Assembly: GCA_964430735.1 (NCBI GenBank)
Contig: CAYSFB010000002.1
Coordinates: 158,027 to 222,026 of the forward strand
DNA: 64,000 nt
Direction: 5' to 3'
DNA from: an uncultured Planctomycetia bacterium
GTDB lineage: Bacteria; Omnitrophota; Gorgyraeia; 2-02-FULL-51-18; JAGOUK01
Shown here: in pieces, positions 1,072 to 39,600 of the stretch
How positions within the stretch are numbered: the first letter of the stretch is position 1
Layout of the letters: each line of letters starts with the position of its first letter
The notes under the pieces: generated by a model
Databases searched by the model: none
What the model was told of the DNA's origin: nothing
What the model saw: only the letters and a program-made list of their open reading frames with translations
Position numbers and translations under genes: made by a program

Positions 1072-1099
1072 ATAGGGACACGTACTATTTAATTTTTTG
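1061..1099. repeat. left REP-like inverted repeat/hairpin of REPtron
   Basis: Perfect 22-bp core TAGGGACACGTACTATTTAATT at 1073-1094 is the reverse complement of 1781-1802. Confidence 0.7.
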
Positions 1100-1776: not shown

Positions 1777-1817
1777 CAAAAATTAAATAGTACGTGTCCC
1801 TATTTAATTTTTTTCTC
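1777..1817. repeat. right REP-like inverted repeat/hairpin of REPtron
   Basis: Inverted copy of the 1061-1099 sequence. It encodes the C-terminal KKIK plus the stop codon of tatC. Confidence 0.7.
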
Positions 1818-2703: not shown

Positions 2704-2714
2704 AAATAAATGGA

Positions 2715-5631: not shown

Positions 5632-5757
5632 CCGAATCCCCTGAATAGCCGGTTTAATAACGCTGAAAAAGTCTCTGTGGACGATTTGACAAATCGACAA
5701 ATTACCGAACGATTATAGTTCCCCCGGAGGCCGATGACAAGGTGAATTATGGAAAAA

Positions 5758-8700
5758 TTAGGCGGCCTTCGCGACGGCCTGAATCATCCGGCGCATAGCG
5801 TCGAGGAGCCGGCCGACGTTGAGGGGCCGGAATTCAGCTGCCTTTAGATCTTTATAGTAATCCTGCTGCGCCGCCGGATCGGCCGGAGGCAGCGTGAGCA
5901 TGCTGCGATAAAAAGTTTCTGCACCCTTCATAAAAAATCGACCGATCGCCGACAGGGTGATATCAGCCGCCGTTACGGCGTCCGGCGATCCGGCTTTGCT
6001 TTTTACGAAGGCGAGCTGTGTGCCTCTGCCGGCCGCGGCGGGATAGTTGACATAGGGCGAGTTCGAATCGGCTTTGCCGACGGGCGAAAAAACAATCCAT
6101 TTTTCGATTTCAGCCCGGTCAGCCGCCGACAAATCTTTTAACAACTCCTGCACGGCCCCGCCGCTCATCACCACCACACTGTATATTCCTTCGCGGCCGG
6201 CTTTGCGAATTTGTCCCAAAACTTCGGACCGTTGAACATAACCCCGGGCATTCTCATCCGCGCCCGGCTGAACCAACCCTGTAACACGGGTCGTGATCAA
6301 CCTCACCGAGCTCCCGCCCTTTTGACCCGATACCATCCGCCCAAGACTGGCTGCGTTGGCCCGGACCCCGTCCTGACCCCAGTCTCCGATATTCGCGATC
6401 AGCTGCATTCTGATTGCGGTATCACCGGCGCGTGCAAGAATTCCAAGCCAACGATCCAACTTGCGCCCCAACGCGCCGGCAAGCCGGGCACCGGACACCA
6501 GGCGGCCGGCCGTGAACTGCAACTCCGGTCCCGGTACAACCGACGCGGTCCGCGAGCGCTCCATGGACGGCACCACCAAACCAACCCGCCGCGTTCCGTC
6601 CACCGCCAAGCTCAAACGGCTGCCGGCCAAATACCGGCTCGCACCCTCGGCCGCATTCCGCATTCCAGGCCACAACTGGTCCGCCTCTTCAGCAGAAATC
6701 GATTTATCGGGAAGTGTGAGCGCCCCGGCCAAAAGCCGACGCCCGGCCACCGCCAGCCGGGCACCGTCGGGCTCTTTGTTCGACAGCCGGCTGCGAATCC
6801 GCATCAAGTAATCGCGAATGCCTTCCACATTTTGTTGGCGCGAGAGTTTGAACAAGTCCCCTTTTACACGAGAACTTGCCGGCAGCAATCGAGAAACCGA
6901 TCGGATCACATCCTGCAATGCCGCTTCGTCAATCCGGATCAAATGAGTCCTGGCCGGCTTCCTGCCGTCCGGAAGTTCCACACTTCCGCCGATCGAGCGC
7001 ATGTACGACTTGAACTCATCCACGCCGACACGCGAATCCGTTTCCAGCGAGATGGGTGACAGAATTCCGGTAAAAAACGGCTCGTAGGACCCGCCGTTGC
7101 CCGTGATCCGGATCCGGTCGAGCGGAATCTTCGACTGCGCCAGGAAAAAGCTGGATTCATGAAGGTACTTGAAGGCCGCCGTCACAGCCAGCAGGGCGTT
7201 CAAAACCTGCAAGTCGGCAGCGCCCGCCTGAACCCAATCGTCGAGCCTTTCGGCCGCCGGCTCTTCCTCCAACAGATACAGCGCAGATTCTCCTTGCGGG
7301 TGCTCGAACTGGTCTGGATAAATCCTCATTTTGCGCAGCTGCTCTGCCGTCAAACTCAGACTGTCCGGACCCTCCTGGCTCCGGGAGGGGTCGATGCGTC
7401 CATACCTTATAAAATGCGGAAAATATCGGCCGATAACCGATCGGTTGAGAGAATGTTCGGCCAGGAAAATGCCGACCCGCGCCCGCCACAAAGTAAGCGC
7501 CTGATCCTGGAAGAATGTCCGGACCATGCGGACGGGACCGGTCCCGTTTGAAGCGACGGCATTCTGCTCCTCTATGAAACGCAGATCCGGCTTGCCTCCC
7601 CCCGACAGGGACGAGAGTTTCTCAATCCGGGCAGTCAGAACCTCGTCGTACACGGCACGCTCTATCCGATCGGGTCCCATTAAGATCGTGCGCGCGTAGC
7701 GCTCCTTCCGGCCCTCCTCGGACAGATACCTCAGGGTGATGATCATCGTTTGAAGTTGTTCAAGAATCAAGTTCTGGGTCTGATCGGAGCTTTTTTCCGT
7801 CGTCTTCAACGCTTTAATTTCTTGGGCGGATTTTTCGATCTGACCCAGGAGCCGGTCGGCTGTTTGGTAGAGATTCCGCCTTTCCTCGTAGGACCAGGTG
7901 CGGAGTTTGTTGGTGTGGGTGATGGCGCGGTTGGAATCATACCAGAACTCATTCTGCGTCTTCCGGATATCCGACAGGATCAGCGCAGCGCTCCCGGCTG
8001 TTTCGCCGTCGGAACCGAGGAGACGCTCCAGCTCGCGGGCTGCCGCCTGATAACCGTACAGCGCCCCTCCGGGAGTCAGGGCCTGCGCGGTGAGTATGAC
8101 GGTCAGGTGCTGCGCGTTCGCGAGAGCCGTCGTGATCAATTCATCCGCTTGAGCACCTTCCGGAGCCGATACCTGCACAACATCCTTCACCAGGGCTTCA
8201 GGGTCCCATGAGGGCACTCCTTTTCCGTAGGCATGGCTGATCGCGGTCCGATTCAGCCGTACGAGCTGACGCTCATTCACAACTTCTCTCGCAGCGAGAA
8301 ACTCCAGGTCCCGGCGGAGTTGTGACGGCAGCCGATCGCGGCGGGCGGGCGGCAGCCGGCGGATCAGAGTCCGATCGGCCAAGATGACGTTCATCGCTTC
8401 GATCCCCGCCTCGTCGCCGGCGATCCAGTCCGGCGATCCGGGAACCAGGTTGTCGACTGACATCGCCCCATGCAACTTCCCGATCTTCCGGCTGGCCTTT
8501 TTGCCGCGCCCGAATTCCGAGCTGGCAAAAATCGGGTTAAGCACCTTCTCGGCCGCCTGCCGCTCCCGCGCCGGTTCGGGATCCTGAACGATATAAGGCT
8601 TTTTTTCGATGATCTTGATCCACTTTTGGACTTTTTGCGCGACGCCTGTCACCTCAACTCTCCAATCCGAACTGTCGCGGCGGCTCTCCGTAGACGCCGG

Positions 8701-11700
8701 AAATCCGTCGACAAGATCCGCCAGCTTCAACGCAGTCCCGGATTCGTTCGAACGTTTTGGCAGCAGATTTGCGGCGGCGCGCAGCGTCTCGGCCAATAGA
8801 TATTGGGCGGCCGGGCGGATCTCTTCGAGATCCTCTGACCGGACCGATCCCGGATATTCGCTCACAAGAGAACGGATGATATCAACGAGCTGGATCTGGA
8901 ATTCCTCATAAAAATCCTGGTCGTCATCATCCCGAGCCCAGGAGGAGATAAATTCCGTCGACGGATACTCCAGATTGAGCCATGCGCGGACCAGGTGATT
9001 GTAGGCGCTGACGGCTGAAGATGCGGCGATCTCCCTTTGAGCCAGCGCCAGCTGGACAACGGCCTTGATCATCCGTTCCTCCTCCTTGGCGTGGAGCGGC
9101 TGCGCGGCGCGGCTCTCATGGTAGGGGAAACGAAGGATGTCGGCCATCAGGTCATTCAGACGTTCGATCAGCTCGTCCTCAAACCCGCTCCGAGACGCAA
9201 GCCGGGCGCCGTCCGAAGCCCGATCGTCCGGATTCAGAATCTGCTGCAGGCGGGCGACCCATGCTTCATCATCTTCCGGCGCCTCGTACGGCTCTCGAAC
9301 CGACCAGTCAATGCCGTCGATCCAGTCACGGAAGTTCCGGCGCTGAGGCGCCGCAAGAATCCACACCGCTCCGAGAAGTCCCCACATCGCACCTTTGAGC
9401 GCCCCGCGCAGAAGCGTCATGCGTTCCGGCTCCGGCGTCCAGGGCTGCCCCAAATCCACGGCCGGTTCGGCGCCGAACAAACTTACAACCCGCAGCCGGA
9501 TGCTGTACCCGCCGTTTTCTTCGGGATAAAAATGGTGCGGCTCAAGCTTCAACGGCCCCGAGTTTCCTCTCACTTTTGTCATTTTTTCCCGCAGAATAAA
9601 ATCATCCATCGGCAGCCGGCCGGAATCATGGACCCCCATCTGATAGCCATCGATATTCGAAACAAGGAGCCTGGATCCCGCATCACTAAAACTCTCCGCG
9701 GCTTCTTCGGCTCCCACCGGAATCCTTCTGGAGAATATGACCGGTATTTGGATCTGAAAAACTCCGGGTGAACCGATTTCCGGTGTGATGACCTTCCGGC
9801 CGACGATCGGGTTCTCGCGGTTGCGCCGGACGAGCGCTTTTGCCAGACCTTCGGCAGCAGGTCCGGCGACCGACAACACCGCGGGCAAAGCCGTCCACCT
9901 GAAAAATCCCCTTCGACTCATCCTCCCGTCGGCCTCATCTTCATCGAACGACCCTACGCTGCCCGATGCAAGCCGTGCCCCGTCCAACGCTCCGGCCGTT
10001 TCTGCGAGACGCTGTGCCGCATCCGACAGGTCGGTGCCCTTGAATTTTTCTGACACCCGCTTAAGATCGCGCTTCACGTCCAAGGGTATGTCTCCCGCGA
10101 TAGATCGGACGGCAGGTTTCATTCTGCGCTCCATGATCTGCGTCACCACCTCCAACCACAGTCTCGCGTCCGAATCCGTCAAAGCCGCCTCGAGTCCGTC
10201 CGGCTGCGTTCTGGGCCGGCCGGTCTCGGAATGCATCAAGATGACGGGCAGCACGCGGGACCAGGCGTTGATCAAAAAAGGCACTCCCAGCGTGTCCTTC
10301 TCGTCCGCCAGAAGCGCCTGGAGCGCGTGATCCAAAATTCTTTTTTGCGTCCTCCGGATGCTCTGCTTCAGGTCGTCAAATTCCCGAAGCCCGGACATTT
10401 GGTCCAGAGCGGTGATCGCTTCGACAACGACTGGATGCAGCAAAATGACTTCGCTCCGCTTGTGGGTGCTGGCGTTTTTGAGATCGAGCCTCCGGACCAT
10501 GTCGCCGACCGCTTCAACCAACCGCGCGCGCGTCTCGGGCCGGACACCGGGCTTAAGGGACGTCGAGACCGCTAGGCTCACCACCCCTCTCGTCATGAGT
10601 CTGTCGGGCGACAGCGAAACGAGAATCCTCTGATCGGAATCCAAAAGAGCATCAGACCCGGACTCGGCTTCTGCCGGACCGAGCCGCAGCGCCTCGGCAA
10701 TCCAGCCACCGGCCTCCGAGCCGACCGGCACGCCTTCACGTCCGGGCCTGGGCGAGCGTGTCGTTGGATCAAAAAGGATATACCGAAGATAGTTCATCCA
10801 TTCGGCCCGCCGGTCCGGATAGTTCTCAAGATTCCAGTCTTCCGGCATGCCAATATAGCGGTTCTGCACCTCGCTGTTGAGGGAGTTGCGCGCCTTCGCG
10901 TGCTTCTCCACATAGCTCAATAGCTCGTCAGAATCAGGTCCGAGCGGCCGCAATCCGACTTCGAGCGCCGCCTCACCGGCTTCGCGCTGGATGTCCTCAC
11001 TGACGGCGCGCTTGCGGATCTCGTCAAGAATGCGAACCGTCTCGAGCAGCGTATTGGGCGGAAGCGCCACATCCGGATCAGAATAAAAGCGCTTCATCCC
11101 GCGGACCAATCTAAGAAGCGCCTCAGGACCTTCCTTGGATGCAGTTTCCGCTGACAGGCGTTGTTCGACAAGCCGGCGGAGTCGAAGAAGGGTTCCGAGA
11201 GTCGGCTTGGGGTGCAGAGCCACCGACTCGTCGGCGGCCGCATCCAATTCCTGATCGGTGACGCTCTTGATTTTTTCGCCGCGGAAACGGCGGCGCACCC
11301 TGTCTTCCCACAAGTCCGCCTTGGCCGCGACCGGCACGAGCCCCTCAAAGATCGCATGCAGCCGTCCGTCGGCGTCGGTCCAGCTGCGCGTCCGGCGAAT
11401 CTCCCGGATCCGCTCGACGGCGAGGCGGATTTTTTCTTCCGACTGGGACCGGCCTTCCTCATTAACTTTTTCCTGCAAGAGCCTCAGATGCAGCTCTAGC
11501 GCTTTTTCCTCACTCTTCTGAATCTCGCCGGATCCGTCACTGACGTACAACACTCCGCCGATCACACCGCCGCCGAATAACCGGATATCTTCCATCATCG
11601 CGGCGTTGCGCTGCTCCTCCGCCTTGGAAGCCGGCCGGACTTGAGAAATAAAATTCGCCTGCGCATAATCCGGAAGCATGGACGGTGCCTGAAGCCCCGA

Positions 11701-14700
11701 GGCGATGCGCGTGTCGGAAGCCGAGACCGTGAACGACCGTCTCGAAGCAGCTTCGCTTCCCATCAAGAGCCGAAGATCAGGGTCCCATTCCCCTGTCTCA
11801 GGATTCAGGTGCAGAGTATCCACGATCGGAGTTTGGGGATTCGAGATGCCCGACGCAATCAGGTAAAACGTTCCGCCCTTTTCGATGACATCCAAAACAC
11901 CCAGAGCGCCGAACTTCTGAGCTTGGGCCGCAAAATCGGCTTTGGCTTCGTCTTTATTGGCGCCAAGCTCGAGCCCCCTCAACGCATTCCATTGGTCGCG
12001 GAGGACTTGGCCCGCTTCCGCGTCAACCGGGATTTGCAACGCCGGACGGAACGGCGACCACATGTATCCATCCCGCAGCGCGACAGGATCCATCGTCGCG
12101 GCGCCCATCACGCGGCCAGTCGGAATGTGCACGAGAACCGCCGGAACAAACTGACCGATATAAAGGCCGAGCGGATCGGAATCGGACTTGGAAGCTCCGC
12201 CGATATTTACCCGGAAGCCGTTCTTGGCATCCGGCTGCGGCGCCGAACTCTTGCCCTCCATCCACCGGTTCCACCGCTCGGCATAACGCTCCTTCACAAA
12301 GGCCTGCGCATCCTGCAGGCGACGGAAGCGGCGTACCACCTGACCCTGCTCCTGGACATAAAACGAATATTGAACTGCATCGACTCTAGCGCCGCCGTAA
12401 TGCCAGAACTCCGTGTCTTCTTCGTCCGTCTCATACGTCCGGCCCAGCGCCAGGGACCCGATCCGCGTTCGCGAATCAGTGAGCGCCCTTCGGTAGGAGG
12501 CGAGCGAGCGAACAACTTTTTCGCCGTAGATGCCTCCCAGCGACTTTTCAAGGCTCCAGAGGGAACGGAATTTTTCCCATCGGTCGGCGAGCACCGCCAC
12601 GATCCGGTCGCTCATCTGCGGCAGAATGAAGGACCGGCGCGACACGGAAACGGTGTTGTGCGCCCCGGCATAACCTCCGAGCACCTCGCGGGCGCGCCAC
12701 GCACGGATGTATTCCTGCTCCCAAGGATGCTGGCGCTGGTTCGGGCGCTCCATGAGCCGCAAGCGTTCGATGTGCGCGTTCTCCCGCAGATCCGGCGTCG
12801 GCTCGACACGCCCGACCGCATCCTCGCCGGCCGCTTGCCGCGGCGACCAGGCAAGTCCGGCAAAAACGGCGCCCAGGAACAATCGCCGATTCACCTTCAA
12901 AGCCAGCCTCGCTCCGTCCGGCCGGATCCGGTCCCATAACGCCTTGAACCGCTCTTGGCGCGCGGCCCGGCGCGCCTGCACTCTCGAGTAAATATCTTTG
13001 ACCCGGCCGGCCACGAGTGTTTGGACTTCGGCGAATTCACCGCTTAATTCCACAATGGCGCCGACCGCGAATTCCTGCGCCACTAACCCAAGCCTGGAAT
13101 TCAACGCAACCCGGACCAGCATGGGCGCGGCCGTCGCACCCAGCTGCAGCATGACCGCATGGACAGCCACCCGCACGATCGCCCGCGCGCTGGCGTCCGT
13201 CAGCCCGCCTCCGTCCGCAATGTCCAGAAAGACCGGGAACAGCGCTTGTATCAGGCGGAGGTTTTCCGGCGCAACGGACAGATGGTTTATCGCCGCAGAA
13301 AGCAGCGCCTCTTTTGCCCATTCCAAATCCAAGTCCGGCCTCTGCCGCATGGCTGCGGCGGCCGCCAGCGCGCGCAGCGTCCGCATGGCTGCGACCGCTT
13401 CAGGATCCTTGGCGCCCATCCCTTTGAGAAATGCCCAGAGCTCGGAATTAATTTTTTCGCTTGTCCTCGGGTCCTCGATCAATTTATTGATGATCGCCGA
13501 CCAGTGAGCCCAATGAGTCTCTCCTGCTTCTGGAGAAAAACCTTCTCCGACGATTTCCTCGACCGCAGCGACAAAATGCTCCTTGATATCTCCTTCGACG
13601 GCCGCGCCGCCTCTCAATAAGGCGGGAATCCGGCTCCGAGCCGGTGCGGCCAGCTTCGCGATCTGGCTCCGCGCCGCCGGTCCGCCCGCACGCGTCAATG
13701 CCGAAAGCAGCGCAGCAGCGTCAGAAATCCGGCCAAGATTATCGACTGCGCCTGACGGAAGGCCCGCGTCCGCGATGGATTGGGTGACGATGGCGGACCA
13801 AGCCGACTGCGCCCGGCGGACCGCCTGCTCAGAACCGAGTTTGCGCAACAGGCCTGCCGCCTCGCCGAAGGCCAAGTCGCCGATCAACTGCTGGACGATT
13901 TGCAGATTCTGCTTCTGATCAATCCCGCCCTGCTCCAACTGCATGACCAATCCGGGCATCACATCGCGAACGAGTCCCGCTTTGATCTTCAAATCAATGT
14001 CCGGATCCGCCAGGATTCGGGCGAGCTCACTGACCAGAAAGGGATAATCCGGAACCGGAAGCGCCGGCGGATCGAAGAGCGGCCCGCGCTTTGCCGCGGG
14101 TTGTTGAGCGCCGGCGCGATTCGGCAGCAGCTGCGACAACCCGACCGCCAGTCCGCCGCCGACGAAGCCGCGCCGCGTGACGGAATCACCCGTCGGTTCA
14201 ACATCCGGTGTTGGTGCGGCCCAATCGTCCCTCTTGGCCTCAAAGAACTTGAGCCGGTCGCCGTCGATTCGACGGAACGCTGCGAAGTCCTCCTGATAGA
14301 ACTGCAGGGCCATCCGCGCAAAGCGCTCCTTCAAAAACATTCGCAGCCCTTTGCGTTTCATCTCGCTGAAGCCGCGACGGAGGAGCAGCCTCTCGATGGA
14401 CGCCAATCCGGTGGGACCTGCGACAAAAGTGTAGCCGGCATACAGATCCGGATTAGCGCGAAGATCTTTGGAGAATTCCTCGATCGCGCCCGCCACCTCG
14501 CGCGGCGAATACCCAACATCCATCAAATGCAACTCGATCCGGCCCTTGCCCGCCCGTTTTAAAAATAACGGGCCGTAACTGTGTCTCTCATAAAACCCAA
14601 GCAGCTGCCCGGCCTTCAGATTGACCTGTTGCAGCGCCCCCAGCAGCCGCGCCTGCCACGCACGCTTGGCGGTCTCGGCCATCCGGGATCCGGTTGTTTT

Positions 14701-17700
14701 GAGCAGCACATAGGCGTTCGATTCGCCCTCGATCAAGACATAGGGAGAAGTTATGATTCCTTCGGACGTCTTGCTGTAGAGCCGGAGCTCGCCTGCGACG
14801 GGAGCGATGAGTCGGCCGCCCGGAGCCAGCGCGCTCCAGACGGCATCCGGGACCTCCTTGACGGCGGCGGAGAGGACGATCGCGTCAAAAGCTCCGGGAT
14901 TTTGGGCGGCATACTGGATGCCGTCGTCCTGGACCAAGAGAACTTCCCGGCCGGATGCTTCGGGGAGGCTCCTAAGTTTCTCCAGGTTCGACCGTGCAAA
15001 CGCGGCCAGCTCGGGATCCAACTCAACCGCGACGGATTCACGGGCAAGCTGGCGCGCCCAGGCGGCCAAGTGTCCGGAGCCCGCGCCGATCTCGAGGAAA
15101 CGGTCTTCCGGCTTGAGCTGCAAGGCAGTCAGAATAAACGCCGAACGAGACGGCGCCGGCATCACCTGACCGTTCAAAGTCGCAATGGAGTCGTCCCGGT
15201 ACGCATCCGCGATCCGGTCCTTCGGAACAAAAAGATGCCGCGGCACCCGATCCATCGCATCCATCACTCGGTTCCAACTTTGAATGAAGGACTCGCTGCT
15301 TTCATAGAGCTGATCCAGCGGTTCCCGGAAGCGATCCGTGTTCATCACCGCGGACCAGACCGCCGATTTAAGATTTTCCTGCCCCTGGCGCTCATCCGCC
15401 CCGTCTCCCGCCGCCAGCCGCGCGCCCAGCTGCTTATAAATTGTCTCGAGGTTGTTCATCAGGGTTTTCCAAAATTCAGGGTCGTCGATTTGGTCACGGT
15501 CGATGCGGGCCTGCTTCTGCAACACATCGGCCAAGGCGCGGACCCTCATCGCCTCATCCAGGACCTCACCTTCACTCTTCAGGGGTCCGACACCCTGAAT
15601 CATTGCTGTAAAAAATTCCTCGTTCCCCATCAGAACGGCAAGCCGCCTCAAATCCTCCATCTCCTGAAGCCGGCGGTCGTCGGAAAGGCGCTCCAGGCGT
15701 TTGGCGAGCCAGTCATAGATTTTGAGAAGCGAATCGGAATACCGGGATCTCCGGGCGGTCTCCAGCGCCGGACGAAGTCCCCCCATTTCCCCGGCAATTT
15801 CGCTTGAAAAGATGCTGACATTTTCAAAGAATGAATGTTCCCGTGGATCGTCCAGTTCCCATTCCAGAGTCGTGATGTCCGAAGCCTCCAGCAAAATTCC
15901 TTTGAGCGCCTCGTGCCGCCGCTCGGGATTCTTAATTTGAACGGCCTTTTCGGCGGCGGCTTTAATCTTCTCAAAATCCTTCTCCAAATCCTCGATGCGC
16001 CGATTCCTGGCGAGCCACGGGCGCAGATACTGTTCGGCGAACTGCCTCCGGACGTTCGCGATTTGATCCGGCGTCAGCCCGCCTTCCTTTTTGTATCTTC
16101 CCAACCGCTTCTTGATGTCGCTGAAGACGGTCTCCGGGGAGAGCTGAGAATAAATGTAAAGAGGATGATCCGTCCGGTCATCAGCTTCGGAGCTGTATCG
16201 GTCCGCTTGTTGGATCAGCGACCGAAGCGCCTCCCGTTCCCGCTCCGTCAATCCATCGGCGGCCGCCAACCGGGCGCCTTTCAGCTCCTGAGCCGCCGCA
16301 TGAATCCTGGCCGGCAAACCTCTCTGCCGCGTCCCATCAGCTGCATCGGCGAGTCTGGATTCGGCAGGGGCAGACTGCTTCCAATCAACCAGGTAAGTCA
16401 CGTAACTGCCGGTTTCTGCGCGGTTCTCTGTGTAGTACAGAATCCTCGGATGGTCCGCGCTGGGGACCGGAAACCCTCCCGGCCAACTCCCGATGGACGG
16501 TTCGTGCAACTTCAGCTTTTCTCTAAGGTCCTGCAAAACGATGTCGTCCCCAAATTCGGGCCTGGCATTCCAGGCGACCAGCGCGCCATCGAGAGTCACG
16601 ATGGGGTTTTCTGCGGCGCCATCCAGACTCCGAGCAATCTCTTCTATGAACGTATTCCAGAAGCGGATTCCGTTTGCACCTCCGTCCTCGAGCTTTTTCA
16701 TCGTTTCGGCCAAATCGGACGTCCTGACCGATTCGGGTCGCAGCGGATAAGCAGGTGCGTTGACGGAAATAAATCGGACTGGTCCTTCGAACGCCGGTCG
16801 GCCTTCAGGATCCGTGGAGACGTTGGCGACCGCCGACTCAATTGTCTCGATGCCAGCGGCCTTCAGATTGACCCTGGCATTCGCGACGGCAAATGGATTG
16901 ATGTCCGAAATGCGGTAAACCAGTTCTTCTTCCCGCCCCGCCAGCCGGAGCGCTTCGTGCATAACCCAGGCTCCGATGCCGGTTCCGGTGCCCATGTCCC
17001 AAAGGCGGTCTCCGTCGTTGAACGAAAAACTGCCGACCTTCCTGGACAGGTCCGAAAAAAATGAGCTGTCGGCGCTGTCGTTCGCGGAATCGGCGGGCGA
17101 GTAAACGGTCGGGAAGAGAACGAAGATCGCGCGCGAGGAAGGGCCTTCTTTGGCCAGCATTTCTTTGGCCGCATCGTACATAGTAAGGGCGGGTTCGCCT
17201 TCCTGGTCCGCCTCCAGAAACGCCGACGGATCCACCCCGCTGACGTTTAATGTGGTGCCGTTGAGTTCTACATAGATAAACGGCGTCTGACGGGCTCCTT
17301 TCCACTTGCGTTCAAGCCGGGATGCCATTCCTCCGGCCTCGAGATGCTGTGCAAGCAGCTTGCGATTCGCATCGCGGGATTGGGCGAAGCTCTTCCACTC
17401 CGAGGCGGCCTCGGGATCTCCGACCCGCCGGAGGAGCTCGCCATCGATCGCGTAATCCGCCAGATCCAGATAAGAGTCCTTCTCCCCCTCCCGATCTTCA
17501 CGGAACGGATACACGGCCAGCGGAAGGCCGTTGTGCGAGTACACGCGGAACTTGACGCTTCGGCCGTCGAGGCGAGCCCATGCCGCCGGGTCCACCAGCT
17601 CCCGCAACAACAACGGACCGGTGATCATCTGCGAGGCGGCTTGCGTCTCCAGCTTCACCTCGTATTCGCGGACTTCGCCGCCGTCTTCGTCTTGGACCAC

Positions 17701-19614
17701 ATCCGCCGATGACACCGCGTCCAATCCCAACACTGCCCACAGCTCTCCAAGCGGCGTCCGATCCCGCCATGCGCGCAACAAGTCCGTCCGACCGTCTTTT
17801 TCCAAAATCGGAGAATCGCTTGCAGCGGCCAGCCGCGCAGCCTGGGTCATGCGCTCGGAGAACCCGTGGCCCATCCGCTGATCCGCAAACCGCGCTCCGG
17901 AGGTCTTGGCAAAGCTCTCGCGGGCAAATCGCGCGGCGGCGATTTCGGCGCGGAGGCCGCGCGGGATGCGCGTCTGGGCGACGTTTTGGGCGCGATAAGG
18001 GCCGGTGTCATTGGATGCCTTGGCGGCCAGGCGTTTTTCCTGCTGCCTCAGGTGCGACAGAAGCAGCTCCTCGTACTTCGCGTGATCGGTCGTGTCGGTG
18101 ACCACGGGCGTAAGAACGATGTACGACGTCCCTTCCCGCCTCAAAAGCTCCGTGAGGTGAGCCGTGTGATAGCCGCCGGCCACGAGCACTGCGGCCGAGA
18201 CGTTTTCGCGGTCCATGATCCGGCGGGCATTGTCGACAAAGGCCTCATCGCGCTGTCCCACAAGCTCATAGAACCGGCCGAAGTCGGCGCGGGCGGCTTC
18301 GAGATGATCTTCGGTGGGCACAAGACTCTCGAAGAATCCCAGGTCCGCCAGCTTGCGGTTCATAAAGGCCAGCCAGGACTCGGTCGGGAAGTCCTTTTCG
18401 TTGAACGTGAACGTGCCGAAATCCCGGGACGACATTTGAAGCTTGTAGGCGTTGCCGAGCAGGCCCAAGAACCGGTCGATCGCGCGGACCTTCCGCGCAT
18501 CATCGTCCGGAAGCAGCCGCTCGTAGACCTGGTCCTCAAGCCGCTCCGTCTCAGCGAGAAGGTCGTCCAGGCGGATGTCCAAAAATTCGGACAGATAAGC
18601 TTCGTACGCCCGCAATTCGGCGAACAGTTCCGTCTCGATGCGATGCCCTTCAGCCGTGCGCAACAGATCGCGAATGAGCAGATACTGAGATGCCTGAGAG
18701 GCCTTCAGGCGCTTGGACTGCTCCAGGAACCGCGACACGGCCTCGCGGTCGCCGCGGCCGGAGACCGCTTCGAGCAAGCGCGCCTGCTCCGCGTTGGCCC
18801 GGTCAAAGTCGATCGACCGCTCCCGCTCGAGCAGGACGCGCAGCTTGAGGATGCTTGGGTAGTCTTCGAGCTGCAGCCCCGCCCGGTCCACAAGCTCCAA
18901 AAGCGCCGTCAGCCCCGTCTTGAAGTCGACGGCCGCGTCCGAATCGGCCGAAAGACGGCTGCGCTCATAGTCCTTCAGCTCCTGCGGATACATCCGCACT
19001 TTGAGCCGGTCCAGCGAGGTCTTTGCCTGGTACAAGTAATGCAGAATGTCCTTGCGCCGGTCGACGAGCGCCGCGTAGGCCTTGACCGAGGCGTCGTAGA
19101 GATCTTGGTTTTCGGCGCCGGAGATTTTCATGGGGCGTTCGCTCGTCAGATTCAGATATTCTTCGCCGGAGATGATGCCGTCGTACAAGAAGCGGCGGGC
19201 GATGATCTTCCACTCCTTGAGCGGAGCAAGCTTGCGGACGGCGTCCAGCGATGCGTCGCGGGACCCGCCTTCCACCAGGACCACCGGCAAGTCGTACCGG
19301 CCGAGCAGGTCGTCGAGCGCCTTCGCCAGCGACTGCTGGCCCGAGAGATTCGCGTGGGCATCCTGGATGTGGATGATGAGACGGCCGTTCGTTCCGGCGT
19401 GAACCTCCTGCAGCGTGACCGCGTGCAGCGGGAGATCGAGACGGGAGGGGTCGGATACAAAGGGCGCGATGGCAAGGCGCGCGGCCGCGGCAGGAGCCGG
19501 CTGGATCGGCGGCACCCCTGGACCGGGCGATGCCCAGACGATGTCCTGCGCCGTCAAGCAGGCCAGCGTCAAACATGAAATAAGTTTAAGTTTATTCTTT
19601 AATATAGAGGGCAT
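5758..19614 (-). CDS. giant secreted multidomain protein (4618 aa), paralog of the 36639..50036 gene
   Basis: Uninterrupted 13.86-kb ORF. N-terminal signal peptide. The N-terminal ~600 aa are homologous to giant 2 (IHIQDAHANLSGQ / LVAGGYHTAHLTEL). Internal PCMT-like domain (FLEIGAGSGHLAAW...FDAIVLSAA...GGRLIAPV) near 14.7-15.3 kb. HemK-like methyltransferase motifs (DMGTGTG, NAPAYP) near 16.6-17.1 kb. Six copies of [DG]GARLA plus AAARLA and GARFAD variants. Confidence 0.85.
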   Translation of the reverse strand: MPSILKNKLKLISCLTLACLTAQDIVWASPGPGVPPIQPAPAAAARLAIAPFVSDPSRLDLPLHAVTLQEVHAGTNGRLIIHIQDAHANLSGQQSLAKALDDLLGRYDLPVVLVEGGSRDASLDAVRKLAPLKEWKIIARRFLYDGIISGEEYLNLTSERPMKISGAENQDLYDASVKAYAALVDRRKDILHYLYQAKTSLDRLKVRMYPQELKDYERSRLSADSDAAVDFKTGLTALLELVDRAGLQLEDYPSILKLRVLLERERSIDFDRANAEQARLLEAVSGRGDREAVSRFLEQSKRLKASQASQYLLIRDLLRTAEGHRIETELFAELRAYEAYLSEFLDIRLDDLLAETERLEDQVYERLLPDDDARKVRAIDRFLGLLGNAYKLQMSSRDFGTFTFNEKDFPTESWLAFMNRKLADLGFFESLVPTEDHLEAARADFGRFYELVGQRDEAFVDNARRIMDRENVSAAVLVAGGYHTAHLTELLRREGTSYIVLTPVVTDTTDHAKYEELLLSHLRQQEKRLAAKASNDTGPYRAQNVAQTRIPRGLRAEIAAARFARESFAKTSGARFADQRMGHGFSERMTQAARLAAASDSPILEKDGRTDLLRAWRDRTPLGELWAVLGLDAVSSADVVQDEDGGEVREYEVKLETQAASQMITGPLLLRELVDPAAWARLDGRSVKFRVYSHNGLPLAVYPFREDREGEKDSYLDLADYAIDGELLRRVGDPEAASEWKSFAQSRDANRKLLAQHLEAGGMASRLERKWKGARQTPFIYVELNGTTLNVSGVDPSAFLEADQEGEPALTMYDAAKEMLAKEGPSSRAIFVLFPTVYSPADSANDSADSSFFSDLSRKVGSFSFNDGDRLWDMGTGTGIGAWVMHEALRLAGREEELVYRISDINPFAVANARVNLKAAGIETIESAVANVSTDPEGRPAFEGPVRFISVNAPAYPLRPESVRTSDLAETMKKLEDGGANGIRFWNTFIEEIARSLDGAAENPIVTLDGALVAWNARPEFGDDIVLQDLREKLKLHEPSIGSWPGGFPVPSADHPRILYYTENRAETGSYVTYLVDWKQSAPAESRLADAADGTRQRGLPARIHAAAQELKGARLAAADGLTEREREALRSLIQQADRYSSEADDRTDHPLYIYSQLSPETVFSDIKKRLGRYKKEGGLTPDQIANVRRQFAEQYLRPWLARNRRIEDLEKDFEKIKAAAEKAVQIKNPERRHEALKGILLEASDITTLEWELDDPREHSFFENVSIFSSEIAGEMGGLRPALETARRSRYSDSLLKIYDWLAKRLERLSDDRRLQEMEDLRRLAVLMGNEEFFTAMIQGVGPLKSEGEVLDEAMRVRALADVLQKQARIDRDQIDDPEFWKTLMNNLETIYKQLGARLAAGDGADERQGQENLKSAVWSAVMNTDRFREPLDQLYESSESFIQSWNRVMDAMDRVPRHLFVPKDRIADAYRDDSIATLNGQVMPAPSRSAFILTALQLKPEDRFLEIGAGSGHLAAWARQLARESVAVELDPELAAFARSNLEKLRSLPEASGREVLLVQDDGIQYAAQNPGAFDAIVLSAAVKEVPDAVWSALAPGGRLIAPVAGELRLYSKTSEGIITSPYVLIEGESNAYVLLKTTGSRMAETAKRAWQARLLGALQQVNLKAGQLLGFYERHSYGPLFLKRAGKGRIELHLMDVGYSPREVAGAIEEFSKDLRANPDLYAGYTFVAGPTGLASIERLLLRRGFSEMKRKGLRMFLKERFARMALQFYQEDFAAFRRIDGDRLKFFEAKRDDWAAPTPDVEPTGDSVTRRGFVGGGLAVGLSQLLPNRAGAQQPAAKRGPLFDPPALPVPDYPFLVSELARILADPDIDLKIKAGLVRDVMPGLVMQLEQGGIDQKQNLQIVQQLIGDLAFGEAAGLLRKLGSEQAVRRAQSAWSAIVTQSIADAGLPSGAVDNLGRISDAAALLSALTRAGGPAARSQIAKLAAPARSRIPALLRGGAAVEGDIKEHFVAAVEEIVGEGFSPEAGETHWAHWSAIINKLIEDPRTSEKINSELWAFLKGMGAKDPEAVAAMRTLRALAAAAAMRQRPDLDLEWAKEALLSAAINHLSVAPENLRLIQALFPVFLDIADGGGLTDASARAIVRVAVHAVMLQLGATAAPMLVRVALNSRLGLVAQEFAVGAIVELSGEFAEVQTLVAGRVKDIYSRVQARRAARQERFKALWDRIRPDGARLALKVNRRLFLGAVFAGLAWSPRQAAGEDAVGRVEPTPDLRENAHIERLRLMERPNQRQHPWEQEYIRAWRAREVLGGYAGAHNTVSVSRRSFILPQMSDRIVAVLADRWEKFRSLWSLEKSLGGIYGEKVVRSLASYRRALTDSRTRIGSLALGRTYETDEEDTEFWHYGGARVDAVQYSFYVQEQGQVVRRFRRLQDAQAFVKERYAERWNRWMEGKSSAPQPDAKNGFRVNIGGASKSDSDPLGLYIGQFVPAVLVHIPTGRVMGAATMDPVALRDGYMWSPFRPALQIPVDAEAGQVLRDQWNALRGLELGANKDEAKADFAAQAQKFGALGVLDVIEKGGTFYLIASGISNPQTPIVDTLHLNPETGEWDPDLRLLMGSEAASRRSFTVSASDTRIASGLQAPSMLPDYAQANFISQVRPASKAEEQRNAAMMEDIRLFGGGVIGGVLYVSDGSGEIQKSEEKALELHLRLLQEKVNEEGRSQSEEKIRLAVERIREIRRTRSWTDADGRLHAIFEGLVPVAAKADLWEDRVRRRFRGEKIKSVTDQELDAAADESVALHPKPTLGTLLRLRRLVEQRLSAETASKEGPEALLRLVRGMKRFYSDPDVALPPNTLLETVRILDEIRKRAVSEDIQREAGEAALEVGLRPLGPDSDELLSYVEKHAKARNSLNSEVQNRYIGMPEDWNLENYPDRRAEWMNYLRYILFDPTTRSPRPGREGVPVGSEAGGWIAEALRLGPAEAESGSDALLDSDQRILVSLSPDRLMTRGVVSLAVSTSLKPGVRPETRARLVEAVGDMVRRLDLKNASTHKRSEVILLHPVVVEAITALDQMSGLREFDDLKQSIRRTQKRILDHALQALLADEKDTLGVPFLINAWSRVLPVILMHSETGRPRTQPDGLEAALTDSDARLWLEVVTQIMERRMKPAVRSIAGDIPLDVKRDLKRVSEKFKGTDLSDAAQRLAETAGALDGARLASGSVGSFDEDEADGRMSRRGFFRWTALPAVLSVAGPAAEGLAKALVRRNRENPIVGRKVITPEIGSPGVFQIQIPVIFSRRIPVGAEEAAESFSDAGSRLLVSNIDGYQMGVHDSGRLPMDDFILREKMTKVRGNSGPLKLEPHHFYPEENGGYSIRLRVVSLFGAEPAVDLGQPWTPEPERMTLLRGALKGAMWGLLGAVWILAAPQRRNFRDWIDGIDWSVREPYEAPEDDEAWVARLQQILNPDDRASDGARLASRSGFEDELIERLNDLMADILRFPYHESRAAQPLHAKEEERMIKAVVQLALAQREIAASSAVSAYNHLVRAWLNLEYPSTEFISSWARDDDDQDFYEEFQIQLVDIIRSLVSEYPGSVRSEDLEEIRPAAQYLLAETLRAAANLLPKRSNESGTALKLADLVDGFPASTESRRDSSDWRVEVTGVAQKVQKWIKIIEKKPYIVQDPEPARERQAAEKVLNPIFASSEFGRGKKASRKIGKLHGAMSVDNLVPGSPDWIAGDEAGIEAMNVILADRTLIRRLPPARRDRLPSQLRRDLEFLAAREVVNERQLVRLNRTAISHAYGKGVPSWDPEALVKDVVQVSAPEGAQADELITTALANAQHLTVILTAQALTPGGALYGYQAAARELERLLGSDGETAGSAALILSDIRKTQNEFWYDSNRAITHTNKLRTWSYEERRNLYQTADRLLGQIEKSAQEIKALKTTEKSSDQTQNLILEQLQTMIITLRYLSEEGRKERYARTILMGPDRIERAVYDEVLTARIEKLSSLSGGGKPDLRFIEEQNAVASNGTGPVRMVRTFFQDQALTLWRARVGIFLAEHSLNRSVIGRYFPHFIRYGRIDPSRSQEGPDSLSLTAEQLRKMRIYPDQFEHPQGESALYLLEEEPAAERLDDWVQAGAADLQVLNALLAVTAAFKYLHESSFFLAQSKIPLDRIRITGNGGSYEPFFTGILSPISLETDSRVGVDEFKSYMRSIGGSVELPDGRKPARTHLIRIDEAALQDVIRSVSRLLPASSRVKGDLFKLSRQQNVEGIRDYLMRIRSRLSNKEPDGARLAVAGRRLLAGALTLPDKSISAEEADQLWPGMRNAAEGASRYLAGSRLSLAVDGTRRVGLVVPSMERSRTASVVPGPELQFTAGRLVSGARLAGALGRKLDRWLGILARAGDTAIRMQLIANIGDWGQDGVRANAASLGRMVSGQKGGSSVRLITTRVTGLVQPGADENARGYVQRSEVLGQIRKAGREGIYSVVVMSGGAVQELLKDLSAADRAEIEKWIVFSPVGKADSNSPYVNYPAAAGRGTQLAFVKSKAGSPDAVTAADITLSAIGRFFMKGAETFYRSMLTLPPADPAAQQDYYKDLKAAEFRPLNVGRLLDAMRRMIQAVAKAA

Positions 19615-23171: not shown

Positions 23172-23711
23172 ATGGCCAAATCCAAATCAAAAACAAAGCC
23201 TGTTGAACATCCGGTGGTGACGGTCATCATCGAGATTCCGAAGGGCAGCCGGAACAAGTACGAGTTCGACAAGAAGACCGGCGTGATTAAGTTCGACCGC
23301 ATGCTGTTCTCGGCCGTGCACTACCCTTCCGATTACGGGTTCATTCCGGAGACGCTGGCGCAGGACGGGGATCCGCTCGACGCGCTGGTGCTGGTGTGGG
23401 AACCGACCTTCCCGGGCTGCCTGATTCAGGCGCGGCCGATCGGCTTGTTCAAGATGTGGGACGAAAAGGGGCCTGACGAAAAAATCCTGTGCGTTCCGGT
23501 CCACGATCCGCTGTGGAACCACCTGACGACGCTCAAAGAATGCCCGCCGCATCTCCTCAAGGAAATCGAGCACTTTTTCAAAATCTATAAAGATCTCGAA
23601 GAGAAGAAAACAGGCGTCGAAGGCTGGCAGGGATTGGAAGCCGCGTTGCGGATTATCGAAGAATCACGGGTCCGTTACCGCCAATCCCTCAAAAAGAAGA
23701 AAAAAGCCTAG
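23172..23711 (+). CDS. ppa: inorganic pyrophosphatase
   Basis: Family I PPase signatures: EIPKGSRNKYE, DGDPLDALV and the PPase fold segment HYPSDYGFIPETLAQDGDPLD. ATG at 23172; the track ORF starts at a GTG at 23145. Confidence 0.85.
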   Translation: MAKSKSKTKPVEHPVVTVIIEIPKGSRNKYEFDKKTGVIKFDRMLFSAVHYPSDYGFIPETLAQDGDPLDALVLVWEPTFPGCLIQARPIGLFKMWDEKGPDEKILCVPVHDPLWNHLTTLKECPPHLLKEIEHFFKIYKDLEEKKTGVEGWQGLEAALRIIEESRVRYRQSLKKKKKA

Positions 23712-24997: not shown

Positions 24998-25476
24998 TGA
25001 CCCTTCTCCTTTTCTCTGGCGGATCCGGCTGGTTCGGGCGCGGGGTGCAGCGCATTTTTGAGCCAATAATCGCAGATCGTCCCGATCATCGACACCAGGG
25101 ACCTGAAGTCGTTCGGCTTCGTAAAGTACGAGTTGGCGCCCTCCAAATACGACCGGTTCACGTCCCCGTGATATTTGGACGTGGTCAGGACGAGCACGGG
25201 GATTTTTTTCAAATCGGAATGGTTTTTCAAATCGCGGAGCGCTTCCCGGCCGTCCTTGCGCGGCATCCGCAGGTCCATCAGGATGAACTTCGGATACGCC
25301 GGCCCGCCGTCGGAAACCGAGCCCAGCAGCTGGGGCATCAACCCCTCTCCGTCCAGCGCCCGGGTCAGATGCACCGGGTTCCCGGACTCCTCGAACGCGC
25401 GTTTGAGCAGCAAAAAATCGTCATCGTCGTCTTCGAACACCAGGACCCAGGGCGCGGGCTGCTTGATGACCATCAT
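24994..25476 (-). CDS. single-domain response regulator (CheY-like receiver)
   Basis: LVFEDDDDDFLLL...ILMDLRMPRKDG...VLVLTTS...YFTKP receiver signatures. Confidence 0.8.
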   Translation of the reverse strand: MMVIKQPAPWVLVFEDDDDDFLLLKRAFEESGNPVHLTRALDGEGLMPQLLGSVSDGGPAYPKFILMDLRMPRKDGREALRDLKNHSDLKKIPVLVLTTSKYHGDVNRSYLEGANSYFTKPNDFRSLVSMIGTICDYWLKNALHPAPEPAGSAREKEKGQ

Positions 25477-26849: not shown

Positions 26850-26873
26850 CGGCCTTATTATAACCCTGGCGGG

Positions 26874-36638: not shown

Positions 36639-39600
36639 TTACGCCGACTGGTCGATCGCGTCGTCCGCCATCTGAAAAAGTTCAAAAAGATCCGTCACGC
36701 TCAAAAACGCGGACGCGCGGTATTCCCGGAGCAGCAGCATCTGGGCGGGATCCGAAGGGTCCACTTCGGCCATCGCCAAACCCGCCGCCTGTGTGGGCGC
36801 GCGGCGGAACAGCATCTGCGAACCGCGGCTTTCGCGCCACAACGCGACGCCGTTGCGTACTCCCCTGAGCCGGGCCAGTTCGGCTTCGGTCAACACCGCC
36901 AGCGTGAACGGAATGTGCCGGCCGGCCTTCACTTCGGCCAGCATGCCGGTGTCGCCCGCTTCGAGCGCCGCTTCGTTTTCGACCGCCGCCAGATGCGCAT
37001 GGATCGGGTTGTCGAGTCCGCGGATGCCTTCGGCGCTCAAGTCCCCGTACTGTCCTTCGAATTGGACGTACACACCGAGAACCTTCGCCATCTTCTGGAC
37101 GGAACGGAAGACCCGTTGCATCTGCTCTTCGTTCAAGCCGCGCAGGATCGCGCCGTCCGCGTGCAGGATGACCGGCTGGCCGGCCGTGGACTTCAGATTG
37201 GGAATCAGATCTTTCTGGAGGGCCTGCCGGGCCATCTGGGCATTCCAAGGCTTCTGGATCGCGGGCATCAGCGCCGCGCCGTCCGAGCCCTTGGCATCGC
37301 CGGCATACGCCAGCGTGTTCCAGGCGAGGGCGTCGGCGAATTTCCACCGGATCGCGCCGTTGCGCATCGCCAGAATCCGGGTCAGCAAAGTGAAGATTCC
37401 GCTTGAAGCGTCGAATTCGGCCATATCGAATTCCGCTTCTTCCTCGCCCCGGAGAGCCGGCGCCGCGCCCCGGACAAATCCTTCGATCGCCTCGGTCTGC
37501 AGGCTGGCTCCCGACAACCGCGCGCCGGTCTTGGAAGGCGCCGGGGTGGTCAGATTGATTGCCACTCCTGATTGATCATCCATCAATTGATTGATGTAGT
37601 TCAGTTTGGTATCCGCCGCTATTTGCCGGCGAAGCGAATCCGCAATCCAGAGATTCAAAATCAACTTACCGTTCTTTTCTGTCAGGCCAAGCCCCAGAAT
37701 CGGGTCTTCCGGCGCATCATAGGTCTTCCCGGAAAGCGAGGACAACGGCTCTTTGGCATCTGCCGGCAAGTGGTCGACTTTGAGTTTTTTTTCCTTGCTG
37801 TCCCAGGCAATCGAACTGATGATATGAATTCCCTCATTGCGGGCAATCACCCACGTTCCATCTTCCCAGGACATGATTTGCAGCATGGACTGCTCTTGTC
37901 CTTTTGGAGACACCTGAACCATCTTTAATTTCTTGTCGGAAGCACCCGCCGCCGAATCGAACAGCTCAAAGTTCGCTAGCTGCGGGGTGGCTTGATGTTG
38001 CGTCACGAACACGGCCAGGGCCGAAGCCATGGTCAACTGCGCCATGCGCGCACCGCCGGCGGATTTAAGATCTTGGAGAGATTCCGCAATTTGCGCGGCC
38101 GTGACAGCTGCGTCGATGGCGGGCATTGGACGGATATTCAGCGTATGACTCTTATCGGAGGCATAAACACCGATCATTGCTTTGTGGCTGCCAACCTCGC
38201 GAAGACGCTCATGAACCGGCTTGCGATCAAGAAAAAGGCGGAACGCGGCCGCCAAATCCCATCCGCTGATCCTGGGATCGATGTACACGGCGTCGAACTC
38301 ACCCCATTCTTCGCGACTCTGGGCAATCCAAGCTGGAAGGATGTCTTCGAACCGGTCGCCGCCCTCGTAGCCCCTGGGCATGCGGTGGCGATGCATTTGG
38401 AGCAACGCCTGCAGCGTGTGGAGTCCGGGCGCCCCGAAGGCCTGGGGCAGGTTATAGACGGTGCGGATGCCAAGAGTTTGGAGCTCACGGAGCATATCCG
38501 CTGCCGGTTCCAGCGGCTGATTGTTCGGATGAATCCACCGGTCTTGGCGATGCAGTTCAGAAACCTGTTGAGAAAAAATATCGGTCGAAAGCCCGCCTTC
38601 CATATCGTATGAGGCGAGGATCAGATTTCCGTGATCATCTGAGTCCACGACACTCCACATCGGAGCATCCTGGACGGTCGGATCGGCCGCGATCATGCTG
38701 CCGACCGCCGGACGATCATCCTCAGCCACCAACCGGAACTTGCTGCGATCAAGCGTCACCGTAGTTTTCTCGACGCGCTGCGCTTCGCGCAGATGCTCCA
38801 AATACAGGTTCGCTTGGTCGATGAGCCCGCCCAGAAGCTTCTGAGCCGCCGGGAGAGCATATGTATTGCCATCCAAGTCATTTGCGTCCGACCGCAGATG
38901 GTCTGTTTGGCTTTTTGCTGTTTCCAGGAGTGAGAGATACGAAAGAACCCGGCTTTCTTGAGGATCAAAAAAGCTGCGCGCCAAGCCTTCCGCAGCGGCT
39001 CTGGCCTTGCCCAGCGTTTGCCGCACTGCATCGATCTGAACTTGGATTTGATTTTTCTTCTGCAAATCCGCTGCCCCTTGATCGACCAGCTGTTCTTCGC
39101 GGTTCAGCGCGACCTGGGCGATCTTAAGGGCCTCCGCCGCTCCGTCAAAATCCGCCAGCCGCGCGGCCGCAGGCCCGAATTCCGCGGTCCATTCGGCGGT
39201 CACCGATCCACCCGGGGCGATGACCTTGTCCGACGTCCCGGCGCGGGACGTGGTGGGCTCGACCGCCACGATGTCCGCCGGAAACACGGTCGGATTCTGA
39301 GGAACGAACAGGTGCACGTTGGAGTAGCCTTTCTGCGTGAGAACGAATTTTTCTCCCGTCTGCGGGTTCGTGAATTCAGAGACGGTCACGCCATCCGCCG
39401 ATTCGAGATCCGTGAACGTGGCGTCGATTTTTTCTTTTTCCAGCTTCCGGGGCGCGGCCAGATAGTCCTGGGCGGTGCCGGTCACGGGAATCACCTTGAG
39501 AGTCGACAGGCCGCTCGGGATGGTTTCGCGGACCCCGCGGGCCGGGATCCGGGCTTCGACCTGGGTCGGATTCAGCATTAAAAACCAGGGATGGTGGCCG

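Follow-up and report, generated by a model that had tools for sequence, protein, structure and literature searches.

A pentapeptide junction motif delimits methyltransferases and other cargo modules in giant Omnitrophota proteins, which may be polyproteins

Methyltransferase domains are a recurrent, stated component of the giant proteins described from Omnitrophota (bioRxiv 10.1101/2023.11.21.568195; 10.64898/2026.06.07.730766). Cleavage of such giants has been proposed from their C39 and S8 domains, with the cleavage points unknown (10.1101/2023.11.21.568195). In MARTX toxins, effectors are released at short inter-domain sites, the cysteine protease domain (CPD) cutting only after Leu (PMC2780291, PMC5218395), and one MARTX effector, RRSP, is itself a TIKI-family endopeptidase (PMC6254334). 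Here we analyzed a 64,000-nucleotide stretch (the window, to which all coordinates refer) of contig CAYSFB010000002.1, positions 158,027 to 222,026, from an uncultured bacterium labeled Planctomycetia and placed in the Omnitrophota by GTDB. The window encodes two giant open reading frames (ORFs), and the first of them, giant 1, contains two modules of the S-adenosylmethionine (SAM)-dependent methyltransferase type. The original prediction for this DNA had called such a fusion unusual, which does not agree with the recurrence stated in both preprints; a methyltransferase in an Omnitrophota giant is an already known kind of finding. The architecture around these modules, in which junctions are marked by a short peptide motif, is new as far as we have checked, and possibly represents a new rule.

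Giant 1 belongs to a large family, specific to the Omnitrophota, whose members consist of signal peptide, head, variable cargo and tail. Its main features, and the second giant, are as follows (aa, amino acids).

5758..19614, minus strand: giant 1 ORF, 4618 aa, with signal peptide, head, about ten cargo modules and C-terminal tail
36639..50036, minus strand: giant 2 ORF, 4465 aa, with a head as in giant 1 and 12 junction motifs
19528..19614, minus strand: signal-peptide-like segment of giant 1, aa 1-29, MPSILKNKLKLISCLTLACLTAQDIVWA, read from the sequence
18025..19467, minus strand: conserved head domain, aa ~50-530, the sole region common to giants 1 and 2
16279..17898, minus strand: second methyltransferase (MTase2) cargo module, aa 573-1112 (540 aa), matching stand-alone proteins end to end
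16555..17142, minus strand: class-I SAM methyltransferase fold of MTase2, aa ~825-1020, from motifs, model and Foldseek
16978-16998, minus strand: MTase2 motif I, DMGTGTG, aa 873
16744-16761, minus strand: MTase2 motif IV, NAPAYP, aa 952
14677..15426, minus strand: protein-L-isoaspartate O-methyltransferase (PCMT) cargo module, aa 1397-1646, between GARLA (aa 1397) and GSRMA (aa 1642)
14767..15276, minus strand: PCMT-family domain, aa 1447-1616, Pfam PF01135
5761..5787, minus strand: C-terminal tail of giant 1, ...MIQAVAKAA-COOH, with the family pattern ...[AS]A-COOH

The pentapeptide G-A-R-[LM]-A, with GSRMA, GARFA and AARLA as rare variants, marks the borders of the cargo modules, and each methyltransferase module corresponds to a complete free-standing protein. 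Exact copies of GAR[LM]A number 7 in giant 1 and 11 in giant 2, compared with 0.06 and 0.03 expected from composition and a maximum of 2 in 2000 shuffles. Eighteen copies in the window lie within the giants and 1 in all of the remaining six-frame translation. The same enrichment was seen in related loci, with 138 copies per 159.5k residues in ORFs that contain a head and 24 per 387k in other ORFs; 20 of those 24 sit in neighboring giant ORFs, including that of locus L043 (see below). Over 301 instances, conservation was confined to the five motif positions (G 83%, A 88%, R 96%, L 79% or M 16%, A 73% or S 22%), and position -1 was slightly biased toward small residues. Motifs are spaced by a median of 268 aa (interquartile range 142–422), a range that is the size of ordinary proteins. 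As the codons vary synonymously at every position (Gly as GGA, GGC, GGT or GGG; Arg as CGG, AGG, CGT, CGC or CGA), the motif is constrained at the protein level. In both AlphaFold models that we examined (head and MTase2), the motifs lie in end segments with a predicted local distance difference test (pLDDT) score below 50, and the distance from a motif to the start of the next domain, where seen in relatives, is 25 aa for a DnaJ J-domain and 13 aa for an HTH_3 domain. The motifs of the two giants are located as follows.

17884..17898, minus strand: GARFA, aa 573
16264..16278, minus strand: GARLA, aa 1113
15412..15426, minus strand: GARLA, aa 1397
14677..14691, minus strand: GSRMA, aa 1642
12901..12915, minus strand: GARLA, aa 2234, followed by the Tat-signal-like NRRLFLGAVFAGLAW
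9967..9981, minus strand: GARLA, aa 3212, with SRRGFFRWTALPAVLSVAG 21 aa further on
9196..9210, minus strand: GARLA, aa 3469
6751..6765, minus strand: GARLA, aa 4284
6610..6624, minus strand: GSRLS, aa 4331
6478..6492, minus strand: GARLA, aa 4375
48275, 47639, 47213, 46880, 46016 and 43850, minus strand: starts of the first six motifs of giant 2
43337, 41597, 41120, 40727, 38054 and 37526, minus strand: starts of the last six motifs of giant 2

With the multi-enzyme cluster or Archaeovorin-type giants of Omnitrophota (West-Roberts et al.), giants 1 and 2 share the phylum, very long ORFs, unrelated enzyme domains and an N-terminal signal, and cleavage into several products is suspected there also. 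Unlike giants 1 and 2, those proteins have a C39 or S8 peptidase on the N-terminal side, many transmembrane helices and SecA-like domains; C39, S8 and SecA-like domains were absent from our two giants in a Pfam scan. Both giants are also small (4.5–4.6k aa) relative to the published ones. A term search of the two Omnitrophota giant-protein preprints found neither the head, nor the GAR[LM]A motif, nor the [AS]A C-terminus, and literature searches returned only surnames for "GARLA" and nothing relevant for Omnitrophota combined with polyprotein. MARTX toxins resemble the giants in being secreted proteins (~3500–5200 aa) with variable, independent effector enzymes between conserved ends; they are cut after Leu, and the giant junctions have Leu or Met followed by Ala or Ser. 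They differ in that the giant junction adds an invariant Gly-Ala-Arg before the Leu, in that the candidate protease of the giants would be N-terminal and TIKI-like, and in that the host of the giants is an uncultured, free-living or predatory bacterium and not an animal pathogen. Membership of the MARTX family is excluded, as giants 1 and 2 gave no Pfam match at E ≤ 0.1 to RTX repeats or to the Peptidase_C80 CPD; as an analogy for giant processing, MARTX would be the closest one to work with.

The PCMT module of giant 1 is 245 aa long, and its 120 best homologs are all stand-alone proteins of 176–285 aa. Its PF01135 match (E = 6.8e-30) scored 104.8 bits, against a gathering score of 20.3, and covered profile positions 18–187 of 210; solved PIMT structures matched the module at ~1e-14. 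In common with Pcm/PIMT enzymes, it has 40–45% full-length identity to stand-alone PCMTs and keeps motifs I, post-I, II, III and GGR, with the strings DRIADAY at aa 1466, EIGAGSG at aa 1508 and GGRLIAPV at aa 1599. When SAM-binding signatures were defined by residues conserved in at least 100 of the 120 best homologs, the module kept E1508, G1510, G1512, S1513, G1514, E1531, D1564, D1577 and GGR1599–1601. It differs from Pcm/PIMT in being embedded in a giant ORF, in a 6-residue insertion, and in having Pro1486 at the site of the Ser of the conserved T-[IV]-S-[QA]-P motif, which we take to be the residue that contacts the isoaspartyl carboxylate in PIMT structures. At this site the 120 homologs have Ser (95), Leu (22), Phe (2) or Thr (1), and the sequence around Pro1486 (GQVMPAPS) resembles that of a PCMT-like subgroup which has no Ser (GQVMLAPR). 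The module also scored below the cut-offs of the NCBIfam Pcm equivalog models (116.3 vs. 188 bits and 94 vs. 159 bits for NF001453 and TIGR00080), one of which the canonical homolog P0010 clears with 231 bits. Judged by its sequence, the module is a PCMT-family methyltransferase and not demonstrably a repair enzyme.

MTase2 has a class-I SAM methyltransferase fold with an NPPY-like but non-canonical motif IV, and it is no PrmC ortholog. Its DMGTGTG sits 635 aa upstream of motif I of the PCMT module, its post-I acidic residue lies within SDINP, and G305, G307 and D332 (module numbering) are invariant in the family alignment. Motif IV reads N-A-P-A-Y-P, where the family consensus is N-M-P-A-[VIL]-P and more generally [ND]-x-P-x-[YVILF]; compared with the canonical N-P-P-Y, it keeps the Asn/Asp and one Pro and gains one residue. 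Matches to profile hidden Markov models (HMMs) were sub-threshold (Pfam MTS, E = 0.032; NCBIfam PRK14968/HemK-related, E = 5.7e-6; PrmC, E = 4.7e-3), the PrmC equivalog TIGR03534 giving 16.4 bits for a cut-off of 199.1. An AlphaFold model from an alignment of 8 homologs had a core pLDDT of 80–94, and Foldseek returned 126 PDB matches for it at E ≤ 1e-3, with all 50 of those listed being methyltransferases or methyltransferase-fold chains. The best folds among the matches listed were GenN (2e-9), the carbamoyl N-methyltransferase Asc-Orf2 and PrmC-RF1 (2b3t, 1e-6), together with PsiM, METTL16 and PrmA. A comparison of MTase2 with PDB sequences gave chitinase matches only, which we judged to be due to chance. 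What it shares with PrmC/HemK is the class-I fold, the GxGxG motif I, an acidic residue after strand 2 and an Asn/Asp-x-Pro motif IV, whereas its motif IV is not N-P-P-Y, it carries a 250-aa N-terminal domain besides the methyltransferase fold, and its stand-alone relatives have signal peptides.

Because a word-indexed homolog search with the MTase2 module gave no matches, an exhaustive HMMER search of 1.84 billion representatives was needed, and this returned 42. The homologs match generic class-I methyltransferase Pfam families. The alignment of MTase2 with stand-alone proteins of 440–500 aa spans the whole module, the junction taking the place of their signal peptide, and at least one stand-alone homolog comes from a metagenome-assembled genome (MAG) labeled Dongiaceae, outside the Omnitrophota. 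Modules of the MTase2 type are found in three motif-bearing giants (P0137, P0140 and P0149), where the junction motif flanks them too, and also in giants that have no junction motif.

Taken together, the Pfam and PIMT matches, the motifs, the model and the Foldseek result show that both methyltransferase domains are real, well above chance level, and lie at the coordinates listed above. The original prediction had placed a near full-length PCMT-like domain in giant 1, and the strings it quoted were located as given; the second class-I methyltransferase that it expected some 600 aa upstream was recovered with both its motifs, and the two domains are, as it said, embedded in a giant ORF with an N-terminal signal peptide. 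The checks it proposed came out well for the SAM-binding residues, the signatures being intact in both modules, and for structure prediction of the second domain; the HMM check was significant for PCMT and sub-threshold for MTS/HemK on MTase2. Its term HemK/PrmC-like is apt at the level of fold and motif, with N-methyltransferases among the nearest folds, but does not extend to the PrmC model (16 bits vs. 199). Protein repair, which it had assumed for the PCMT domain, was not borne out, given Pro for Ser at position 1486 and the Pcm equivalog score (116 vs. 188 bits).

The stand-alone MTase2 relatives P0132, P0134, P0138, P0156 and P0176 (locus L082, 6001–7464) are uncharacterized, signal-peptide-bearing proteins of 440–500 aa. 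This family combines a ~200-aa N-terminal domain with an N-methyltransferase-like C-terminal fold and has the motifs PTVYSP, DxGTGSG, DINPxAVANA, NMPAxP and WD...WN; the gene context of one stand-alone homolog held nothing informative. Some MTase2-bearing giants (P0133, P0160 and P0164) begin with a different conserved N-terminal string, A-E-x-x-F-W-K/A-x-R, which also lies ahead of the head in P0009 (aa 36–45) and hints at a further shared N-terminal element. Another set of proteins of ~1300–1600 aa (P0136, P0141, P0145–P0147 and others) matched only aa 848–888 of giant 1, SPADSANDSADSSFFSDL...DMGTGTG, in 6–14 repeated stretches, which may reflect either low sequence complexity or a repeat unit that resembles motif I.

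The two giants are linked by their heads, which share 30% identity over ~510 aa, the rest of the chains being unshared. Scanning one genome per species, we confirmed 502 head relatives, often in several copies per genome; the records are nearly all titled Omnitrophota, with a few Planctomycetia or Eisenbacteria, which establishes an Omnitrophota origin for the window. Some of these relatives are stand-alone genes of 420–530 aa, and many stand at the start of ORFs that continue past 3800 aa until the fetched DNA ends. Head homologs also begin with hydrophobic N-termini comparable to that of giant 1. The cargo is different in each case. When the giant 1 cargo was compared by BLAST with the tails of 79 related giants, nothing matched, so this cargo is unshared and PCMT is not a recurrent module in that sample. 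Giant 2 carries unrelated cargo, namely an FAD oxidoreductase, an aldose epimerase and HEAT repeats (Pfam). At the other end, giant 1 terminates in ...AVAKAA and giant 2 in ...DQSA, and [AS]A ends are also present in P0001, P0002 and P0149. Such an [AS]-Ala C-terminus was found in 10/10 complete motif-bearing giants from related loci vs. 11/317 control ORFs. Several giant tails resemble a final loose motif plus 4–6 residues (e.g., AARMAAIAA and VRMASIAA). The C-terminal 320 aa showed no significant similarity across family members, conservation being limited to the last residues.

At locus L043, a stand-alone head gene (4975–6483, a 624-aa ORF) directly precedes a separate giant ORF (6713–15787; at least 3025 aa) in which GAR[LM]A occurs 8 times, so head and cargo can be divided between two genes. 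The giants of L070, L072 and L079 have no [AS]A C-terminus.

We looked to the head for a possible enzymatic function. Across 40 diverse heads, D85, H87, E115, G480, G481 and H483 are invariant. In the AlphaFold model (AF2; pLDDT 78) the domain has a small parallel-sheet alpha/beta core, split by a ~300-aa helical insertion, and the invariant residues sit just past strands 79–85, 111–114 and 474–480. The only recognized common fold family among the Foldseek matches, all of them sub-threshold, was TIKI, represented by EreC (a member of the erythromycin-esterase, or Ere, family), HopBA1 and Bcr135. Nine of the 40 heads weakly matched Pfam Cofac_haem_bdg (Tiki superfamily, ChaN; best E = 0.011), and in L071 this match covers the C-terminal part of the domain, which is the site of the GGxH motif. 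No NCBIfam model matched the head. TIKI-superfamily relatives with a 2His/2Glu catalytic motif include HopBA1, Bcr135, ChaN and the Ere family, and the spacing from His to Glu is 28 residues in both Bcr135 (H85/E113) and RRSP (H3902/E3930) (PMC6254334). The H87-to-E115 spacing in the head is likewise 28, and D85 corresponds to E3900 of RRSP, two residues ahead of the His (PMC6254334). The head is possibly akin to the TIKI superfamily, whose members also include Tiki and TraB/PrgY, through its parallel-sheet alpha/beta core, its acidic-x-His after strand 1, its Glu at +28 and its second His (GGxH), and is unlike it in the ~300-aa helical insertion between the halves and in having no significant match.

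We propose that a giant may be a polyprotein, in effect an operon in one ORF, that would be cut at or beside the junction motifs within predicted flexible linkers. The released methyltransferases would then act as separate SAM-dependent enzymes on targets other than the giant, perhaps within the cells of a prey or host, which would offer SAM. The most plausible candidate for the processing enzyme would be the head, because it is the sole universally conserved globular part and has a constellation of invariant residues (Asp/Glu-x-His ... Glu ... His) like that of TIKI-superfamily hydrolases, among which there are site-specific endopeptidases. A head-cargo-tail polyprotein that is processed at its junctions, releases its methyltransferases and has the head as its likeliest protease is a reading that we hold tentatively, at just short of an even chance. 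The wider claim of an undescribed class of bacterial polyproteins, in which a TIKI-type head frees enzymes at G-A-R-[LM]-A, possibly as a cocktail of effectors for prey or host, is possible but, in our estimate, unlikely. If true, this wider claim would give the giant proteins of Omnitrophota the cleavage rule that has been lacking and would make them a bacterial counterpart of viral polyproteins and of MARTX toxins, with a different protease. The sharply defined motif around whole-protein units makes processing directly testable, and the question shifts from a repair enzyme fused to a secreted giant to which enzymes are carried as cargo and where their SAM comes from. We regard the interest of the locus as moderate to high, owing to the junction motif and not to the methyltransferases as such.

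Several observations weigh against the polyprotein reading. The assignment of the head to TIKI was sub-threshold throughout (Foldseek, E ≥ 0.2; Pfam, E ≥ 0.011): Foldseek of the head against the PDB gave nothing significant, the matches being mostly to coiled coils and helical bundles, and profile searches against PDB sequences returned coiled-coil noise only. No recognized protease domain (Pfam) was detected in the giants or in the flanking ORFs scanned, nor was a conserved neighboring gene, a protease included, found beside the giants across loci. A Sec-type signal at the N-terminus would put SAM-dependent enzymes outside the cytoplasm, which is unexplained, and the internal Tat-like RR motifs fit a cytoplasmic precursor rather than Sec export. 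The conserved Ser is missing from the PCMT module, leaving its activity and substrate uncertain. Lastly, head and junction motif are not strictly coupled, because five distant head-bearing giants (L062, L064, L070, L074 and L079; 2600–3800 aa, with heads of <30% identity) have no GARLA motif. When alternative junction motifs were sought in these giants, we found faint GAKL, GVKT, GARM and GFKI, none of them convincing.

The failure to detect a protease domain would also suit an uncleaved multi-enzyme scaffold, tethered at its N-terminus, in which the methyltransferases act while attached. GAR[LM]A would in that case serve structure or docking, for instance as a short strand to which the head, a partner, a chaperone or an export factor binds. 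Both the [AS]A tail and the junction motif could be binding epitopes, and in published work the Omnitrophota giants are regarded as membrane-associated multi-enzyme clusters. Processing sites, however, typically look like this motif, which is five residues long, has unconserved flanks and lies in low-confidence linkers exactly between whole-protein units. Nor is it obvious why a scaffold would require an invariant Arg at each junction; we consider the scaffold doubtful, though a serious alternative. That Arg, repeated and invariant, could instead be a substrate if the modules act in cis, as the original prediction suggested. The PCMT would then repair isoaspartyl damage in a long-lived giant and the N-methyltransferase would modify the chain, conceivably at the junction Arg, which would suit two modules that both resemble protein methyltransferases. 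Cis action appears improbable to us and found no support, the modules being self-contained, flanked by junctions and equal to stand-alone proteins. Giant 2, with its 12 junction motifs, lacks any methyltransferase, and so do the related motif-bearing giants that were sampled, except for the three with an MTase2-type module. Neither module of giant 1 was found by BLAST in the 79 related tails, MTase2-type modules occur in motif-free giants as well as stand-alone in the Dongiaceae-labeled MAG, and the PCMT module has neither the Ser kept in 95/120 homologs nor a score above the equivalog cut-off.

Two further explanations concern the nucleotide level and the assembly. The motif might be a nucleotide-level relic or signal left by fused operon junctions, with a Shine-Dalgarno-like GGAG and an NTG codon serving internal translation initiation; position 4 is Leu or Met, for which CTG, TTG and ATG can act as starts, and proteins often have Ala as their second residue. 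Synonymous variation, however, affects all five codons, four sites of giant 1 use CTT at position 4 and two use TTT, neither of which starts translation, and Val (GTG) is not among the commonest residues at position 4 over the 301 instances. On the codon variation and the non-start codons we rejected this reading, which we think very improbable. A mis-assembly or a decaying pseudogene region that mimics gene fusion, suggested by unusual length alone, is scarcely credible: the frames are free of stops over 13.9 kb and 13.4 kb at 60% GC, dozens of related loci share the architecture, and the giant 1 protein is present on two independently assembled contigs, a protein on record (P0172, 4618 aa, from a 293 kb NCBI contig) being identical to it.

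Apart from the N-terminal signal, a hydropathy scan of giant 1 showed 2 marginal hydrophobic peaks, neither clearly a transmembrane helix. Tat-signal-like stretches occur within the chain at aa 1811–1838 (TRRGFVGGGLAVGL, window 14101–14184, with TRRGFVGGG at aa 1813), at aa 2239–2262 (NRRLFLGAVFAGLAW, window 12829–12900, directly after the motif at aa 2234) and at aa 3231–3258 (SRRGFFRWTALPAVL, window 9841–9924), where SRRGFFRW... (SRRGFFRWTALPAVLSVAG) starts 21 aa past the motif at aa 3212. A tatC gene is located 3 kb downstream of giant 1 (window 1800–2576). Inside giant 2, G+C falls from ~0.62 to ~0.50 over window 40700–44200 (aa ~1950–3110). This suggests a block of cargo modules of different origin, whose lower edge (~40,650–40,750) falls on the junction motif starting at nt 40727 and whose upper edge (~44,200) lies 350 nt past the motif at 43850.

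Directly downstream of giant 1 and on the same strand is a gene for an 807-aa FecR-domain protein (window 3277–5700, minus), which is not conserved beside giants in related loci. Elsewhere in the window, an IS200-like Y1 transposase (PF01797, E = 1e-11; window 1085–1747, minus) overlaps the end of a 380-aa ORF of no known family. The region between the giants contains a dense signaling cluster (window 23708–31726, minus) of two response-regulator/GGDEF proteins and three histidine kinases, one with a PAS domain. Beyond giant 2, a 926-aa ORF (window 55309–58089, plus) has no Pfam match; its homolog in another Omnitrophota MAG (L044, 3690–6204; 38–48% identity) adjoins and diverges from a head gene. 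In window 33402–36557, ORFs of 989 aa (minus) and 969 aa (plus) overlap on opposite strands. The minus-strand ORF is probably a shadow ORF, because it has no family match and only the plus-strand ORF matches families, namely the GH94 catalytic and supersandwich domains.

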